Origin: Elusimicrobiota bacterium
Lineage (GTDB): Bacteria; Elusimicrobiota; Elusimicrobia; Elusimicrobiales; UBA9959
Length of the DNA stretch: 64,000 nt
NCBI GenBank assembly: GCA_019135865.1
Contig: JAGVVD010000043.1
Span: 8,340 to 72,339, forward strand
Reading direction: 5' to 3'
The notes below the pieces were generated by a model. That model did not search any database, was not told where the DNA came from, and saw only the letters and a program-made list of their open reading frames with translations. The position numbers and the translations under genes were made by a program. Of the stretch, positions 1,646-62,336 are shown piece by piece (position 1 is the stretch's first letter; each line of letters opens with the position of its first letter).

Positions 1646-1655
1646 TTAAGGAAAA

Positions 1656-1808
1656 CTATTCGGGGGCATGGCAGGGGGCCGGCACGCAAAACACGGGCTC
1701 TCGCGCATAGCGCTCGGCCCTCCTCACTCGGCCTCCGCGCTTACGATGCTCCGGCCTCCGTGAAGGTTTTGCCGCGCCGGCCCCCTGCCTCCCCCGGCTG
1801 TCTCCTTA
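1656..1808. repeat. Structured palindromic repeat, family A, copy A1
   Basis: Starts ctattcgggggcatggc and ends cccccggctgtctcctta. The 5' arm ggcagggggccggc pairs with the 3' arm gccggccccctgcc. It shares its ends and internal blocks with the copies at 24390 and 30408. Confidence 0.8.
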
Positions 1809-1899
1809 GCCGAACACAAAAATGCTAAAGTAAAGAATTCCAAAACACCATCTTAGTTGCGTGAGAGGGATTTGTTGCAGGCACAGGAGTATTAAACCC

Positions 1900-2890: not shown

Positions 2891-3091
2891 GGCTTTCCGG
2901 GCGGGGATGCGGCGAGGAACATGCGGAGCTTTTTCCCGAGCGGAATGAGGGTACCGGCACTGCCGGACGACCAAGAATGTCTGAGGCCCGAGGCGCTATG
3001 CGCCCGGGCCGAGTTCTTGGTCGGCCGAATGAAGCGAAGGTGTATCCCGGAAAAAGCGAACCGTGACGAGCGCATCCCCGCCCGGGAAGCC
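2891..3091. repeat. Structured palindromic repeat, family B, copy B1
   Basis: The outer arm ggctttccgggcggggatgcg pairs with cgcatccccgcccgggaagcc. The conserved core accggcactgccggacgaccaagaatgtctgaggcccgaggcgctatgcgcccgggccgagttcttggtcggcc is shared with the copies at about 17.2 kb and 30.7 kb. Confidence 0.8.
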
Positions 3092-3114
3092 ACGTCTATC
3101 AAATAACCATCGCT

Positions 3115-3152
3115 AGAAAAAAGAGCCCGGGTCTCCCCCGGGCTCTTTTGTT
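3115..3152 (-). terminator. Rho-independent terminator downstream of the malic enzyme gene
   Basis: On the minus strand: hairpin agagcccggg-ggag-acccgggctct followed by a tttttt run, 16 nt after the stop codon. Confidence 0.7.
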
Positions 3153-12068: not shown

Positions 12069-12494
12069 TTATCCTCGCCCCGCGGGGGGGGCATCCCCGC
12101 CTTGCGGTGGCTTGTCCCCGTCCTGCGGGGGCTTGTCCTCGCCTTGCGGGGGCTTCTCCGAATCCAGCCTGCGGAAGAGTTTCTCCAGCTTGGCCGCTTC
12201 CGCCGGCGTGGAGTCGTAGCGGAACATGAGGTTCGGGATGTACTTCAGCCGCAGCCGCTTGCGCATGCTCTCGCGCACCTCGCGTATGGCGCCCTGCAGT
12301 ATGATCCCGGTCCGCTCCCGGTCCTGGGGGGAACCCAGGACCGAGTAGTAGACCGCCAGGTCCTTGCCGTCCGGCGAGATCTTAACGCCCGTTATCGTGA
12401 CCATCCCGCTGGAGTTGAGGCCGTTGACGTCCCTGAGCGCGAAGTTGACCTCCGCCAGGAACAGTTCGTTGAGCCTCTCCGAGCGCTTAAACAT
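12069..12494 (-). CDS. rbfA: ribosome-binding factor A with a repetitive C-terminal tail
   Basis: RbfA core (RSERLNELFLAEV..., LKYIPNLMFRYD) plus the tail KPPQGEDKPPQDGDKPPQGGDAPP. It overlaps the infB stop by 8 nt. Confidence 0.9.
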   Translation of the reverse strand: MFKRSERLNELFLAEVNFALRDVNGLNSSGMVTITGVKISPDGKDLAVYYSVLGSPQDRERTGIILQGAIREVRESMRKRLRLKYIPNLMFRYDSTPAEAAKLEKLFRRLDSEKPPQGEDKPPQDGDKPPQGGDAPPAGRG

Positions 12495-17086: not shown

Positions 17087-17357
17087 CTGGGGGCGGCTGT
17101 CCCCCTATGGGGACGCTTGATAGGCAGGGCTCCCTCGGCGGGCCTTCCGGAGCCACATGAGGAGCCGTCGCCCCGAGCGGAGCGCGGGCACCGGCACTGC
17201 CGGACGACCGAGAATGTCTGAGCCCGGAGCGCTATGCGCGATGGGCGAGTTCTCGGTCGGCCGCGCGCAGCAAAGGGTGGGTTCAGCGACGGCGAACCGT
17301 GGCGGAGCGAAGGCACGGCGAGGGAGCCCCTGCGGGTCCCCGGAATATTTCTCCTTA
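17087..17357. repeat. Family B repeat copy B2, preceded by a remnant of a family A 3' end
   Basis: gggggcggctgtccccctatggggacgcttgatagg mirrors the A-end/B-start junction at 30600-30635. It has the same core, accggcactgccggacgaccgagaatgtctgag...gagttctcggtcggcc. It ends in tctcctta, whose TAA on the minus strand is the stop codon of the DUF1116 gene. Confidence 0.75.
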
Positions 17358-24356: not shown

Positions 24357-24386
24357 ACTTTAAATCGTCCCTGCCCGCGATGTCAA
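24357..24386 (-). promoter_or_regulatory. Putative promoter for the XDH large-subunit operon at the edge of repeat A2
   Basis: Minus strand reads TTGACA, 18 nt, TAAAGT. The -35 lies 3 nt from the ctattc end of repeat A2, and the predicted leader of about 12 nt contains GAGG. Confidence 0.4.
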
Positions 24387-24389
24387 GAA

Positions 24390-24592
24390 CTATTCGGGGC
24401 CAGCGGCGGTCGCCACGAAAAAACGCGCTCGACACACCGTGCTCGCGCTCCTTCCTCGGCCCTCGCGCTCGTATGCGCCTCCGCATCCTCGGGATGCGAT
24501 TCCACCGGCTAGCTTCGGCGCATACTCCGTAAGCTCAGGCCTTCGGACGGTTTTTCTTAGGCGACCCGCCGCCGCCCCCGACTGTCTCCTCC
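24390..24592. repeat. Structured palindromic repeat, family A, copy A2
   Basis: ctattcgggg...cccccgactgtctcctcc. The copy-specific stem gcggcggtcgcc pairs with ggcgacccgccgc. The internal blocks gattccaccggcta and ctccgtaagc are shared with A3. Confidence 0.8.
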
Positions 24593-24609
24593 GTATTACA
24601 AATCCAGCA

Positions 24610-25230
24610 CTACTCTATTCCCTCAAGGTTGAGCGGGATATTCTCTACTCTTGTTGGATGAATATCCACTAAAATCCCTTTGGCAATTGTCTGGACCCGA
24701 GGATTACGATATGAGTCGGAGGGGGTATAGGAAGCACTCACTTCCCTTACTCTGGCGAGAACCGCAATTTCTGAATTTACGGATTTCTCCATCACAACCC
24801 CGGATTCCTTAAGCAATTTACGAAGCTTTTCCTTTGGATATTGAAGCTCAAAATAAAACCTGTCAGAATAAATCTGACTGCGCCATTCTTTCGCATCGCC
24901 ACCGCGCAATACAACCAAGCAATGGGTTTCGCTGTGAATCGATATATCAGCGATTTTGCCAATTATCAGAATAGGGGACTCCGACAGCAACACCCTTTCC
25001 AGTTCAATGGTCGGGGGGGTCCGACCTAGTCCATCTAACCAGTTCAGCCTGGCACCTGCTCGTGAAGCCCAATCTATCACCAACTTCTGAGACAATTTTT
25101 CTATCTCCCTCGCCTCAAGTGCCGTTTGTTTGCCTTTCAGAGAAAGAACATACCACTCTCTCCCCAAAAAGGCCACAATTCCAAGAATAATGACCACCCA
25201 AATAACCTTACTTGCCTTCATTTGATACAT
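24610..25230 (-). CDS. hypothetical TM-anchored protein, third gene of the cyclase cassette
   Basis: 206 aa with an AAGGA RBS. One N-terminal helix (VIWVVIILGIVAFLG) and then a soluble region of about 170 aa with no motif I recognise. About 40% G+C. Confidence 0.6.
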   Translation of the reverse strand: MYQMKASKVIWVVIILGIVAFLGREWYVLSLKGKQTALEAREIEKLSQKLVIDWASRAGARLNWLDGLGRTPPTIELERVLLSESPILIIGKIADISIHSETHCLVVLRGGDAKEWRSQIYSDRFYFELQYPKEKLRKLLKESGVVMEKSVNSEIAVLARVREVSASYTPSDSYRNPRVQTIAKGILVDIHPTRVENIPLNLEGIE

Positions 25231-25247
25231 CCGTATTCCTTACCCAC

Positions 25248-25889
25248 TTATTCCATGAGCTCAATCTCTAAAAAAGGGATTTCTAGTCTCACACACTTAT
25301 AGTCGCGTCCACCATTTATATTCCGCAACGTATATTTTTCTCGTTTTGGGAGCCACTGTTTGGCATTTGCTTTGCAAAAAATCATCTCATACGCCGCACC
25401 TGACATTAGGACTTGATTCTGCGGGCGCGTTACGTTATGCTTAACCAGTTCCTGCAAACGACAGGCAATATTTATTGGTCTTCCCACAAACTCGACTCGC
25501 CCCATCATCACAATCTTACGGAGAAATCCAGAGTCAACACCACAGGTGATTCCTAGGACCGCTGGTTGACTTTCCAACGACGGAAGGACCTTAATTTTAA
25601 GGGTTTCATCAACAAATTCAGCAAGTTTTGGAATAAATCCCCTAAGCTCTGCGCCAGCATCCGCAGCAAATAGCAGGATCCACCCGTCTCCCAAAAACTT
25701 GTACGTCTCGAACCTATACCCCGCTGAAGACTCCAGCAGAAAGTTCTTAATCCGAATGAGAAAGTTATAGTATTGAGCCAACGAGTCGTTCAGCTTCATG
25801 CCCTCCAAAATATTAGAAGAGGAGCATATGTCAAATACCACGACTATCTTTCTCGCCACCTTTTGCTCTGGACGACGCTGGATTTTCAT
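25248..25889 (-). CDS. stand-alone class III nucleotidyl (adenylate/guanylate-type) cyclase domain protein
   Basis: 213 aa. VVFDICSSS carries the first metal Asp. YKFLGDGWILLF carries a Lys and the second metal Asp. GVDSGFL...VEFVGRPINIACRLQ carries the Asn/Arg transition-state pair. No sensor or regulatory domain. Confidence 0.75.
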   Translation of the reverse strand: MKIQRRPEQKVARKIVVVFDICSSSNILEGMKLNDSLAQYYNFLIRIKNFLLESSAGYRFETYKFLGDGWILLFAADAGAELRGFIPKLAEFVDETLKIKVLPSLESQPAVLGITCGVDSGFLRKIVMMGRVEFVGRPINIACRLQELVKHNVTRPQNQVLMSGAAYEMIFCKANAKQWLPKREKYTLRNINGGRDYKCVRLEIPFLEIELME

Positions 25890-25894
25890 AGAGA

Positions 25895-26218
25895 TTAAAC
25901 CTTACGCTTTAAGATTCCCTCATCTTCCAATCGCAGCTTAGCTACAACATGCTGCTTTAACAATTGCAGAACAAGTCCAACCCCAAGAAAGAGCAAAACC
26001 CCTCCAGTTAGGACGGCCCACAATATGAGTGGGGAGAATATCACCCATTCATTGCCTTTGGTTAACCGTTCAAACCAAGGCTTCTCTCCCAAGTACAGAA
26101 CAAGTGGAATCATTGGAACCATCTGCAAGAACGCAAAATGAGTTATAAAATCAACAACCTTCTCATGCCTTTTACCAAAAGCGTAATATTTATCTGCCAA
26201 TGTAACAATCAGTCGCAC
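25895..26218 (-). CDS. hypothetical small integral membrane protein, first gene of the cyclase cassette
   Basis: 107 aa with a GTG start 4 nt after AAGGGGA. Two to three hydrophobic helices (FITHFAFLQMVPMIPLVLYL; VIFSPLILWAVLTGGVLLFLGVGLVLQLL). A 5-nt gap separates it from the cyclase gene. Confidence 0.55.
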   Translation of the reverse strand: MRLIVTLADKYYAFGKRHEKVVDFITHFAFLQMVPMIPLVLYLGEKPWFERLTKGNEWVIFSPLILWAVLTGGVLLFLGVGLVLQLLKQHVVAKLRLEDEGILKRKV

Positions 26219-26260
26219 AATATCCCCTTAATACCCACCAGCCCCGCGATGCCATGACGC

Positions 26261-26288
26261 ATCGTATCGTCAGGATTAGAGATGCCAA
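26261..26288 (-). promoter_or_regulatory. Putative promoter of the cyclase cassette
   Basis: Minus strand reads TTGGCA, 16 nt, TACGAT, about 40 nt upstream of the GTG start at 26218. Confidence 0.4.
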
Positions 26289-26309
26289 TTCCACATCTCC
26301 ATTTGCCGC

Positions 26310-30280: not shown

Positions 30281-30407
30281 TTTATCCTCCGTAAAATCCG
30301 TCGCCCGGGAAGCCGTCCGGCCGCCCGCCATTGATATCTTATTAATAGAAATTCTAACAAATGACCGCACCTAAATAAAGCCGTTACAGGCCGTCAAGCA
30401 GGAATAA

Positions 30408-30618
30408 CTATTCCGGGGGCATGGCGTGCCCTCACCTCGCAAAAACAGGGTCGCGCACACCGTGCGCGCCCTTCCCGTTCTCGCCGCTCGCGCTCGTCCG
30501 CGTCTCCGGCCCCGCAGGATAGTGATTCCACCGGCTACCTCCGACGCGGACTCCGTAAGCGAGCGGCTCCGAAGGGTTTTGCTCCGGTGAGGGCACGCCT
30601 CCCCCGGTTGTCTCCTTA
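30408..30618. repeat. Structured palindromic repeat, family A, copy A3
   Basis: ctattccgggggcatggc...cccccggttgtctcctta. The copy-specific stem ggcgtgccctcacc pairs with ggtgagggcacgcc. Confidence 0.8.
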
Positions 30619-30851
30619 TGGGACGCTTAACGGGCAAGGCTTCATCGCCGGGCCTTCCGAAGCCACATCGGAGGCTTTCCCCAAGCGGAGCGAGGGAACC
30701 GGCACTGCCGGACGGGCATGAATGTCTGAGGCCCGAGGCGCTATGCGCCCGGGCCGAGTTCGGCCGAACCCGTGGCGGAGCGAAGGCCCGGCGAGGGAGC
30801 CTGAGGCGTTTTTTGTGTGAGCATCTGCCATGCCCCCGGCATAAGTATTCC
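30619..30851. repeat. Family B repeat copy B3, directly abutting A3
   Basis: Shared start tgggacgctt(a/g)a..ggc and core accggcactgccggacg...atgtctgaggcccgaggcgctatgcgcccgggccgagtt. The right end gccatgcccccggcataagtattcc is an inverted copy of the A3 left end. Confidence 0.8.
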
Positions 30852-54802: not shown

Positions 54803-55903
54803 ATGAAAGAGCTGAAAATTGAGGCCAAGACCATCCAGGACGCGGTGGAAAAAGGCCTCGGAGAAATGTCCCTGAGAAGGGACCAGGTGGAGGTCGTGGT
54901 GGTATCCGAGGGCAAGAAAGGCCTTTTCGGGTTAGGCGCCAGACCCGCCTGCGTGGTGCTGCGCGAGAAGCGCTGGGGCGGTGCCGACGAGGACCGCGGC
55001 CGCGGGCGCGGGCGCGGCGACAGGCATGAACGGGGGGAGGAGCGGGGACGCGGCGGCGAGCGCGGCGAACGCGGCGGCAGAGGCCGCCGGGACCGCGGCG
55101 ACCGCGGCGGCGAGCGCGGCGACAGAGGGGACCGCGGCGGCAGGGGCGACAGGCCCCGGCGCGACAGGTCCGAAGGCCGCCCGCCCAGGCAGGAGATACG
55201 CAGGCCCGAAGGCCCGCCGCCGGAGCTGGAACCCGCGGCGATGGAGATAGCCAGGCCGGAGGACACCGCCGAGCACGCGAAACAGGCGGTCTCCAAGATA
55301 ATGGAGTACATGGGCCTGCCCTGCGAGATACAGGAAGTGAAGACCCTCGAAGACGGCAAGATACTGGTGAAGTTCGAATCCGCCGAGAGCGCCATGCTGC
55401 TCGAGGATAACGCCAGGCCGATGCAGGCCATGCAGTACCTGGTGAGCTCGATAGTCAACAAGGGCCGCTCCGGCAAGCTGGCGGTGCAGCTCGACACGGG
55501 CGGGTACTGGGAGCGCAAGGAGAAAGAACTGGACCGCAAGGTGGAGTTCGCCGTGAAGACGGTGAAGGCCACCGGCAGGCTGTTCCGCCTGGAGGCCATG
55601 CCGGCCCCGATGCGCAAGTACGTGCACAACCTGGTCAAGACCTCCTATCCCGAAGTCGAGACCGTCTCGGAAGGCGAAGGGAAATGGCGCAAGGTAGTGC
55701 TGCGCCCCGCCGCCGGCAGGCCCGCCGAGGCGCCGGCCGCCAGGCCCGAAGCCAGGACCGAGGCCCCGGCCCCGGCCGTAACGACCCCGGCTCCGCAGCC
55801 GGAAGTTCAGGCCCCGGCCGCTCCGGAGCCCGAGGCCAAGTCCCCGGAAGCGGAGACCGGCAACGAGGCCGCCCCCGTCAACGGGGAGAACGAGAGCCGC
55901 TGA
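54803..55903 (+). CDS. jag: Jag/KhpB-type RNA-binding protein (Jag_N, KH, R3H) with an inserted Arg-Gly-rich segment
   Basis: MKELKIEAKTIQDAVEKGL...GLFGLG is the Jag N-domain. The KH-like core follows, then an R3H-like MRKYVHNLV. An (E/D)RG(D/G)RGG repeat block of about 70 aa lies between the N-domain and KH. Confidence 0.8.
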   Translation: MKELKIEAKTIQDAVEKGLGEMSLRRDQVEVVVVSEGKKGLFGLGARPACVVLREKRWGGADEDRGRGRGRGDRHERGEERGRGGERGERGGRGRRDRGDRGGERGDRGDRGGRGDRPRRDRSEGRPPRQEIRRPEGPPPELEPAAMEIARPEDTAEHAKQAVSKIMEYMGLPCEIQEVKTLEDGKILVKFESAESAMLLEDNARPMQAMQYLVSSIVNKGRSGKLAVQLDTGGYWERKEKELDRKVEFAVKTVKATGRLFRLEAMPAPMRKYVHNLVKTSYPEVETVSEGEGKWRKVVLRPAAGRPAEAPAARPEARTEAPAPAVTTPAPQPEVQAPAAPEPEAKSPEAETGNEAAPVNGENESR

Positions 55904-61138: not shown

Positions 61139-62242
61139 ATGGACATATTAGCGCGGTTAAGACTCCTCTTCTGGTCGCTGGTGCTCGTCATCTGGGGCCT
61201 GTTCATGTACCAGTACATGAACGAGGACATCTCGGCCCTGCCGCAGATGCGCTTCTCCAAGAACCCTTTCAGCAAGCCCGCCGCGCCCTACAAGATAGCC
61301 CGTCACACCTCCAGGCCGGGCGTGTACGTTCCGCCCGCCGCGCCGGCCATGAACACCGTCGGGCGCTCCACCCGGACCGCCGCCGGCACCCACTCGCTGG
61401 TCGTGGGGAACCTCCCGGCCGCGCCGGACCTGATACCCGGCCACGCCCAGGAGGAGAAGGTCTCCATCCACCAGGCCATAGAGGACGCCGAAAAAGCCTC
61501 CTACCCGCCGCTGCCGGACGGCTTCGCGGCTGCGGAGACCCGGCATTTCCTGGTCTACGAGGAGGGGGCTTCGGTCTCGGAGGAACTGACCGCGCAGCTG
61601 GAGAACCTGCACGGCAATATAATGCTCGACCTGGTCGCCTTCTCGCCCTGGACGCGCGAGAAGAAGGTTTTCATCTATTACTGCCACAACCAGCAGACCT
61701 ACCAGCGTCTCACGGGCAGACCGGCCTGGTCCGGCGGCGCGGCCAGCCTGAGCGAGCGCAAGATCTACCTCTACCACAGCTCCGAGGCCTTCGGCATACT
61801 CGCCCATGAGCTGACGCACATCTATTTCGACAGTTTCTTCACCGCCGAAAATCCGAGCCCGCTCTGGCTCAGCGAAGGCGTCGCGACGTTCATTCAGTCC
61901 GAACGCGGCCTCTCCACGCCGCTCTGGCTCACGCAGAACCTGCGCATACTCTCCGGAGGGGGAGGATTCAAGCTCGAGGACCTGGTGCGCATCGACGACA
62001 TGGCCGACGCCGAGGAGGACAGCGTGCGGCTCTGGTACGCCCAGTCCTACAGCGTGACGCGTTTCCTGATGCGCGCCAAGACCGGCGACGCTTTCTACAT
62101 GTTCTGCCGCAACCTGCGCGACGGGCACCCCGTGGCGCAGGCCATGTACCGGGCCTACGGCATGCCCTACAACAGGATGTCCTCGCTGGAATACGCCTGG
62201 CGTTACGACCTCAAGACCGGCAAGATCTCGGGCATACAGTAG
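61139..62242 (+). CDS. membrane-anchored putative zinc metallopeptidase (HExxH)
   Basis: An N-terminal TM helix (LLFWSLVLVIWGLFMY) and ILAHELTHIYF followed by WLSEGVATF, a possible third ligand Glu. No closer family recognised. Confidence 0.5.
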   Translation: MDILARLRLLFWSLVLVIWGLFMYQYMNEDISALPQMRFSKNPFSKPAAPYKIARHTSRPGVYVPPAAPAMNTVGRSTRTAAGTHSLVVGNLPAAPDLIPGHAQEEKVSIHQAIEDAEKASYPPLPDGFAAAETRHFLVYEEGASVSEELTAQLENLHGNIMLDLVAFSPWTREKKVFIYYCHNQQTYQRLTGRPAWSGGAASLSERKIYLYHSSEAFGILAHELTHIYFDSFFTAENPSPLWLSEGVATFIQSERGLSTPLWLTQNLRILSGGGGFKLEDLVRIDDMADAEEDSVRLWYAQSYSVTRFLMRAKTGDAFYMFCRNLRDGHPVAQAMYRAYGMPYNRMSSLEYAWRYDLKTGKISGIQ

Positions 62243-62336
62243 GGGACGCTGATTCCTAAATGCCTAATTACGACGATTCCCTCCAAGTCCGTTTCCAGCT
62301 ATTTTTTAAATTAGGCATTTAGGAATCAGCGTCCCC
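62242..62336. repeat. 28-bp perfect inverted repeat with a 39-nt loop
   Basis: ggggacgctgattcctaaatgcctaatt (62242-62269) and its exact reverse complement (62309-62336). The left arm starts within the stop codon of the preceding gene. The arms are AT-rich relative to the genome. Confidence 0.85.

Follow-up and report, generated by a model that had tools for sequence, protein, structure and literature searches.

A dispersed family of hairpin repeats, probably non-coding and non-autonomous, in uncultured Elusimicrobiales

Results

Three copies of the repeat lie in the window

The window, i.e. the whole stretch of 64,000 nucleotides that was analysed (C25:8340-72339), belongs to a source genome (G000) of 2.95 Mb in 59 contigs with 64% G+C. 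It contains exactly three copies of the repeat described here (family A), which we call A1, A2 and A3, each on the + strand (Table 1). A1 starts 2 nt after the stop codon of pgi and has low-GC DNA on its 3' side, while A2 stands between a 40-nt leader, upstream of a molybdopterin-oxidoreductase gene, and a 1.7-kb low-GC cassette. A promoter-like sequence on the minus strand (TTGACA-18-TAAAGT, 24357..24386; 10/12 in a consensus scan and a consensus match only) faces the molybdopterin-oxidoreductase gene and straddles the leader and the variant 5' boundary of A2.

The preliminary description of this DNA had reported three same-strand copies with shared ends, shared internal blocks, and long stems that differ between copies but pair within each of them. 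All three copies were recovered, with slightly wider bounds that come from the whole-family alignment, and the copy-specific stems are present and pair as quoted, that of A2 with one bulge. The shared ends also held up, but a pattern search for the internal blocks GATTCCACCGGCTA and CTCCGTAAGC matched A2 and A3 and not A1. Within the window the 3' end motif CCCCCGRYTGTCTCCT is present at positions 1791, 24575 and 30601 and nowhere else, against 0.01 occurrences expected by chance. A3 carries the consensus ends AGGAATAACTATTCCGGGGG and CCCCCGGTTGTCTCCTTAT; in A2 the 5' end is the variant TGTCAAGAACTATTCGGGG and the 3' end is CCCCCGACTGTCTCCTCC.

Table 1. Positions and parts of family A and of the features next to it (window positions unless a contig is named).
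Feature	Position	Strand	Basis or remark
A1, short form	1647..1809	+	sequence, fold, core covariance model match
A1, core model match	1683-1775		core covariance model
A2, long form, the flagged ~200-bp copy	~24381..24593	+	sequence, nhmmer match C25:32725-32933, alignment with 45 other copies
A2 closing stem P2, 5' arm GCGGCGGTCGCC	24403..24414	+	fold pairing with 24560-24572; homologous columns covary (helix 2)
A2 conserved core (P3 A-tract, P4 hairpin, P5 hairpin, P3 T-tract)	24413..24560	+	covariance model R1, 56.7 bits, E 4e-13
A2 P5 hairpin extension, ~58 nt, contains GATTCCACCGGCTA	24472..24529	+	alignment columns 101-158, pattern search
A2 closing stem P2, 3' arm GGCGACCCGCCGC, one bulged base	24560..24572	+	fold, covariation
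Low-GC cassette (~0.43) adjoining A2 3' end	24594..26309	-	missing with A2 from the same site in four congeners
A3, long form	30400..30619	+	sequence, fold, core covariance model match
A3, core model match	30435-30586		core covariance model
B3, family B copy, tail-to-tail with A3	30620..30851	-	weak R1 match on minus strand, 30653-30767
Family B in the window	2924-3100, 17161-17253, 30620-30851		
Truncated family A copies	C52:20832, C48:107592, C57:8244, C9:55815, C31:229510, C6:16615		
P1, G/C clamp CCGGGGG/CCCCCGG			single-copy folds, consensus fold of 46 copies
P2, closing stem of 10-19 bp; sequence differs by subfamily, always paired			folds, 46-copy consensus
P3, GCAAAA(A)/(U)UUUUGC			folds, 46-copy consensus
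P4 and P5, two hairpins at a three-way junction (Y-shaped core)			folds, 46-copy consensus

Anatomy, census and placement

The unit ends in short inverted words, ATAAGGA(A/G)...TCCTTAT, which, whichever way they are read, supply a stop codon together with a Shine-Dalgarno-like word; together with the G/C clamp P1 they give single units the terminal inverted repeats expected of a MITE. The long forms A2 and A3 have a P5 extension of about 58 nt that the short form A1 lacks, and one and the same P2 stem was seen both with and without this extension, i.e. the modules recombine. Some copies contain AAGGA-N7-ATG followed by an open frame, but a coding reading was dropped because the indels are not multiples of three and the stem variation is compensatory.

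Counting copies over the 2.95-Mb genome by BLASTN and nhmmer, as the preliminary description had proposed, gave about 56 loci on both strands, 48 of them full-length, in two size classes of ~160 and ~215 nt (up to ~220). Genes were called with a crude GC3-based caller (2087 ORFs, 81% of the genome), and against these calls every copy is intergenic. Of 54 copies, most lie in gaps between co-directional genes (24 sense and 20 antisense) and between convergent genes (9); a single copy lies between divergent genes, although divergent gaps make up ~20% of the gaps in the genome (P ~1e-4). This scarcity between divergent genes, together with the 24 versus 20 split, indicates that the copies lie downstream of genes without a preferred orientation. 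Family A copies occupy transcribed gaps 3' of genes, in either orientation, and the upstream stop codon is often only 3-8 nt before the start of the copy. With copies on C46 and C31, which lie at unrelated loci, A1 shares 98% and 96% identity; since orthologous genes of congeners are only 89-93% identical, this points to recent spread.

Covariation and the folded strand

The preliminary description had taken the stems as a sign of constraint on structure rather than on sequence, a claim that covariation strongly supports. Across 46 copies from the genome 97.4% of cells are paired, versus ~45% with slid partners, and double-sided changes occur in 21 of the 33 pairs, a count that none of 500 shuffles matched. 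A second alignment, of 52 distinct copies from many MAGs, gave 92.6% paired cells and double changes in 19 of 24 pairs, although it was fitted to the covariance model and so leans towards structure. The z-scores of single-copy folds range from -3 to -9. Most of the double changes exchange GC for CG or the reverse, and the consensus helices contain few G-U pairs; in sense-strand folds these account for 2.7% of the pairs. Such GC<->CG double changes could come from arm-to-arm correction of a DNA hairpin without any selection on an RNA fold.

Folded as RNA, the complement strand is the more stable in 45 of the 46 copies (mean -99.9 versus -87.0 kcal/mol). The strand on which the copies were first described is C-rich, and relative to dinucleotide shuffles the advantage of the complement persists less strongly (z -6.1 versus -4.8 for the written strand), so the difference is partly one of composition and does not decide the matter. 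A search for RNA sequencing data retrieved no run of this organism. In relatives, A- and B-like pieces with 90-97% identity are present in short metatranscriptome contigs, which give no transcript ends; these pieces may reflect read-through transcription or DNA carry-over. The earlier statement that the copies match no known RNA family agrees with Rfam: at gathering thresholds a tRNA is the sole match in the whole window, and a permissive scan of the A3/B3 region gave chance-level matches only (E above 2).

Distribution, gain and loss

The core covariance model, which spans 95 positions, was run on 300 genomes of the class and was positive in 31. These belong almost exclusively to one Elusimicrobiales family, in which four genera have at least 14 core matches per genome. 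An exact 34-base core pattern was found at 31 loci, all in MAGs, of which 28 are titled Elusimicrobia, Elusimicrobiales or Elusimicrobiaceae and three only 'bacterium'. BLAST found 15-22 matches in each of the five congeners. In other genera only the core matches: it is kept there, the closing stem is again different yet paired, and the terminal words differ. Family A is specific to a clade of uncultured Elusimicrobiales.

Comparison of orthologous sites revealed presence/absence polymorphism of the kind seen with MITEs. In four congeners (G001, G002, G003 and G005) the A2 site has neither a family A copy nor low-GC DNA, and the stop codon of the upstream gene is followed after ~16 nt by the start of the molybdopterin-oxidoreductase gene. 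The fifth congener, G004, has a related leader, a 31-nt remnant, ATTATTCCGGTGCCGGCGGCTGTCTCCTCAC, and a 1.8-kb low-GC cassette unrelated to that of the window, between the same boundaries. The remnant consists of two family A ends joined at the base of the hairpin (G004:C55 L016, reverse strand, ~1430-1460), and this collapsed copy is the product expected from a deletion across a DNA hairpin. Hairpin-type deletion is likewise seen in the short and long forms that occur within one subfamily. In addition, the small gene upstream of the cassette slot ends in different codons in filled genomes and in empty ones.

A composite flank query found further clean empty sites, each in one to three congeners, for the copies at C52:20832, C46:160507 and C6:4988; one of the empty sites is a translationally coupled junction (ATAATG). 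At C54:131619 the copy is missing from G005, where ~19 unrelated bases are present instead, so this site is not cleanly empty. Four filled-versus-empty comparisons showed no target-site duplication beyond an AT/TA dinucleotide, apart from a possible CATC at C6:4988, and since AT is palindromic the AT/TA flanks are indistinguishable from inverted ends.

Doublets and family B

Neighbouring 5' modules are arranged tail-to-tail in 10 cases, in tandem in two and head-to-head in none, and the doublets carry inverted 5' modules of roughly 25-45 nt. A second hairpin repeat, family B, has ~30 copies in the genome, of which several lie where a contig ends. Family B frequently begins precisely where a family A copy has its 3' end; on its own strand it opens with an A-like 5' module and diverges from family A thereafter. 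In the window B3 starts on the minus strand with such a module, GGAATACTTATGCCGGGGGCATGG, which is identical to the A 5' end at 21 of 24 positions, so that A3 and B3 together make up a doublet of 452 bp whose ends are inverted, resembling BIME/REPIN-style mosaics.

Search for a mobilising enzyme

A RAYT/TnpA(REP)-type enzyme had been suggested as a possible mobiliser. A Y1_Tnp search found two RAYT-like Y1 proteins (encoded at C41:3850-4821 and C44:11136-11846), but both genes are flanked by other hairpins, and neither contig carries a family A copy. The C41 enzyme serves a repeat family of its own, and RAYT was rejected as the mobiliser of family A. All six genomes of the genus were without a match to the TnpB domain PF07282. 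An IS630/Tc1-type parent, which the TA flanks had suggested, was rejected as well, since DDE_3 is lacking from G000 and four of the five congeners and G002 has a single short fragment (93 aa, 31 bits). The sole kb-scale pair of inward-facing ends, 2.1 kb apart on C9, was considered as an autonomous copy and rejected because it holds PduL and BMC-shell (microcompartment) genes. Searches with these three profiles thus found no autonomous parent or mobilising enzyme; draft MAGs lose IS copies.

A terminator-like core

Judged by its anatomy, the core appears to resemble a two-way transcription stop signal. On the sense strand P5 followed by UUUU(U) would stop transcription, and on the antisense strand the complement of P4 followed by UUUUU would do the same. 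We regard it as possible, though with somewhat less than an even chance, that the core would act in the host as back-to-back intrinsic terminators, a role that would explain why the core is kept across genera while the outer stems drift. In every copy that keeps the A-U pairs of P3 the A belongs to the 5' arm and the U to the 3' arm, and none is flipped to U-A, whereas the other helices flip GC/CG freely. The ordinary terminators of this organism have the same A-tract/stem/T-tract form (window 3120-3150). Of seven truncated copies, six are without the half predicted to stop transcription running in the local direction, which is suggestive (P ~0.06). On the other side, the T-runs of the core are only 4-6 long, two copies have the A/T tract replaced by G/C pairs, and a simple terminator scan called only one of six expected hairpin-plus-T sites, the antisense site of A3. 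Some intact copies have genes 5-13 nt away on each side, and these genes show translational coupling where the copy is missing; efficient termination at such a position would have polar effects, which counts against it.

As a yardstick, the window contains a canonical two-way intrinsic terminator at 3118-3152, AAAAAGAGCCCGGG-TCTCC-CCCGGGCTCTTTTGTT, 3' of a malic-enzyme gene.

Discussion

The preliminary description had left open whether the copies are REPIN/MITE-like elements or structured non-coding RNAs. The copy number, the intergenic scatter in both orientations and the insertion polymorphism between congeners decide this alternative in favour of a repeat element, although the link to a RAYT did not stand. 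We conclude that family A is probably a non-coding, non-autonomous, dispersed hairpin repeat of the same kind as ERIC, REP/REPIN/BIME, Correia and MITE-like elements.

If the copies were instead a multi-copy family of genes for a structured small RNA acting in trans or in cis, selection for the folded RNA would account for both the strong covariation and the three-way junction of the core. The preservation of a 95-nt core across genera while the flanking stems vary, the unequal folding of the two strands, and the family pieces in the metatranscriptome contigs of relatives (90-97% identity) would also suit such genes. We nevertheless think this reading unlikely, because orientation relative to neighbouring genes is even (24 versus 20), consensus and terminator scans showed no promoter or discrete ends for the window copies, and copies are gained, lost, truncated and collapsed among congeners. 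G-U pairs are also rare and the double changes mostly GC<->CG, Rfam gave no match, and the RNA signal comes from short assembly contigs that read-through or DNA carry-over may have produced. The equal orientation, the scarce wobble and the hairpin-type deletions mean that a constraint on a DNA hairpin (or on both transcripts) fits better than an RNA gene on one strand. Mobilisation of inverted doublets by a RAYT (a Y1 HUH transposase), i.e. a REPIN-type element, would agree with a hairpin unit that carries compensatory changes, which are common in REPIN hairpins (PMC3116915), with the over-representation of the inverted doublet (10 tail-to-tail versus 0 head-to-head) and with the presence of two RAYT-like proteins. 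This origin is improbable all the same: the C41 gene is flanked by a different repeat, GGGGACGCTGATTAC..., which has inverted doublets of its own (~95 bp, including window 62242-62336), the RAYT contigs are free of family A, the congener G001 has the family but no Y1_Tnp match at 97% completeness, and many genera with Y1_Tnp are without the family. Descent from IS200/IS605 (a PATE), or service as a stand-alone guide-RNA scaffold (omega/reRNA) of TnpB or IscB, could draw on the asymmetric ends with subterminal hairpins, on the lack of a clear target duplication and on a structured length of 160-220 nt. Such a reading is exceedingly improbable and already largely refuted: the genus lacks TnpB (and the TnpB/omega-RNA candidate was discarded on that ground), the Y1 genes are RAYT-like with flanks other than family A, and Rfam gave no match of the HEARO or omega-RNA type.

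The low-GC DNA raises a further alternative, in which the unit would be a folded recombination site, comparable to an integron attC, at whose 3' end foreign low-GC cassettes are inserted or exchanged. Integron attC sites occur one per cassette in tandem arrays and have R''/R' boxes of the form RYYYAAC / GTTRRRY. As in attC, the structure of family A is conserved and its sequence varies, and a small number of copies have a foreign cassette next to them, on a single side: in A1, A2 and C59:20188 low-GC DNA begins directly at the 3' end or no more than ~80 nt from it, and no 5' end has such DNA beside it. The unrelated cassettes of G000 and G004 (~1.7-1.8 kb; G004:C55:15000-19700, L075) occupy the same slot between the same A2-site boundaries, and G003 provides one more case (L045). 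Against this, low-GC neighbours were found for only 3 of 56 copies in the genome and about 1 of 45 sampled in congeners, in a genome of which ~6% is low-GC anyway (128 islets), and a genome-wide link of the family to such islets was rejected as weak. The copies are dispersed singly and form no cassette arrays, most have no cassette, their ends GGAATAAC and GGYTGTCTCC depart from the attC boxes, the far boundary of the cassette has no repeat, and homologous recombination between the conserved flanking genes would suffice for the cassette swap. We therefore consider an attC-like site very unlikely. Similarly very unlikely is the more elaborate proposal of a mobile, clade-wide 'insulator' whose folded DNA would serve as a 3' landing site for low-GC cassettes through a hairpin-recognising recombinase; if true, it would amount to a dispersed integron-like capture system without arrays.

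Family A is new, and by sequence is not a member of the ERIC, REPIN/BIME, Correia or SPRITE-type repeats. ERIC (or IRU), the enterobacterial repetitive intergenic consensus, is ~127 bp long, and to our knowledge it has no transposase. ERIC elements have TA flanks and are co-transcribed (PMC3184786), and family A is like them in being an imperfect long palindrome that lies in transcribed intergenic regions in either orientation, has short and longer forms and TA-type end dinucleotides, and varies in presence among related genomes (PMC3184786 and general knowledge). It differs from ERIC in its unrelated sequence and host phylum, its larger size (160-220 nt), its Y-shaped core of two hairpins rather than a single hairpin, its variable and covarying closing stem and the conserved A-tract and T-tract around the core. 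The hairpin, the conserved ends and the compensating stem recall REP/REPIN/BIME elements (PMC3116915), as do the over-represented inverted doublets, the mosaics with family B and the persistence across a bacterial family, but the RAYT of this genome serves another repeat and family A units are five to eight times the length of a REP. SPRITE is a terminator-like repeat (PMC3184786), and family A is likewise a dispersed repeat with a fold resembling an intrinsic terminator, although it has two opposed hairpin-plus-T modules within a long outer stem. With Correia and other bacterial MITEs it shares inverted ends, intergenic position, co-transcription and insertion polymorphism between strains; unlike with them, the site comparisons and profile searches above revealed no clear target duplication or parent IS, and its interior is conserved across genera. 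Classic MITEs conserve their termini, whereas across genera family A keeps its interior core and varies in its outer stems and ends. Conservation of the interior rather than the termini means that a functional RNA or DNA module fits at least as well as a MITE. The less usual trait of the family, kept across several genera, is this combination: the Y-shaped, terminator-like interior is conserved while the outer stems covary freely.

As a dispersed hairpin repeat, family A may need its long hairpin for propagation, with folded single-stranded DNA or a cruciform being recognised by a trans-acting enzyme. Alternatively or additionally, arm-to-arm correction may keep the hairpin complementary. Either process would explain the copy-specific compensatory stems.

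Family A opens no new category. It adds an abundant and well-defined repeat family, which reaches dozens of copies in a genome and spans at least four genera, to a phylum for which MAGs are nearly the sole source of knowledge. Families A and B break assemblies, mark variable sites and are usable as strain markers. Because family A combines a conserved terminator-like interior with freely covarying outer stems, it is a good test case for two questions, i.e. whether such repeats persist because their hosts use them as transcription stops or insulators, and whether selection or arm-to-arm repair maintains the complementarity of the hairpin.

Three other repeats were observed in the window. At 62242-62336 lies a REPIN-like doublet made of GGGGACGCTGATTCCTAAATGCCTAATT, ~38 nt and an inverted copy; its motif also flanks the C41 RAYT-like gene and forms about six doublets in the genome. 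Together, the C41 RAYT and this motif have the appearance of a true REPIN-RAYT system, here in a MAG of the Elusimicrobia. The remaining two are tandem repeats, both probably within coding sequence: one with a 21-nt period, TTGTCCCCGTCCTGCGGGGGC, repeated three times at 12091-12164, and one with a G+C-rich 9-nt period repeated six or more times at 55044-55165.
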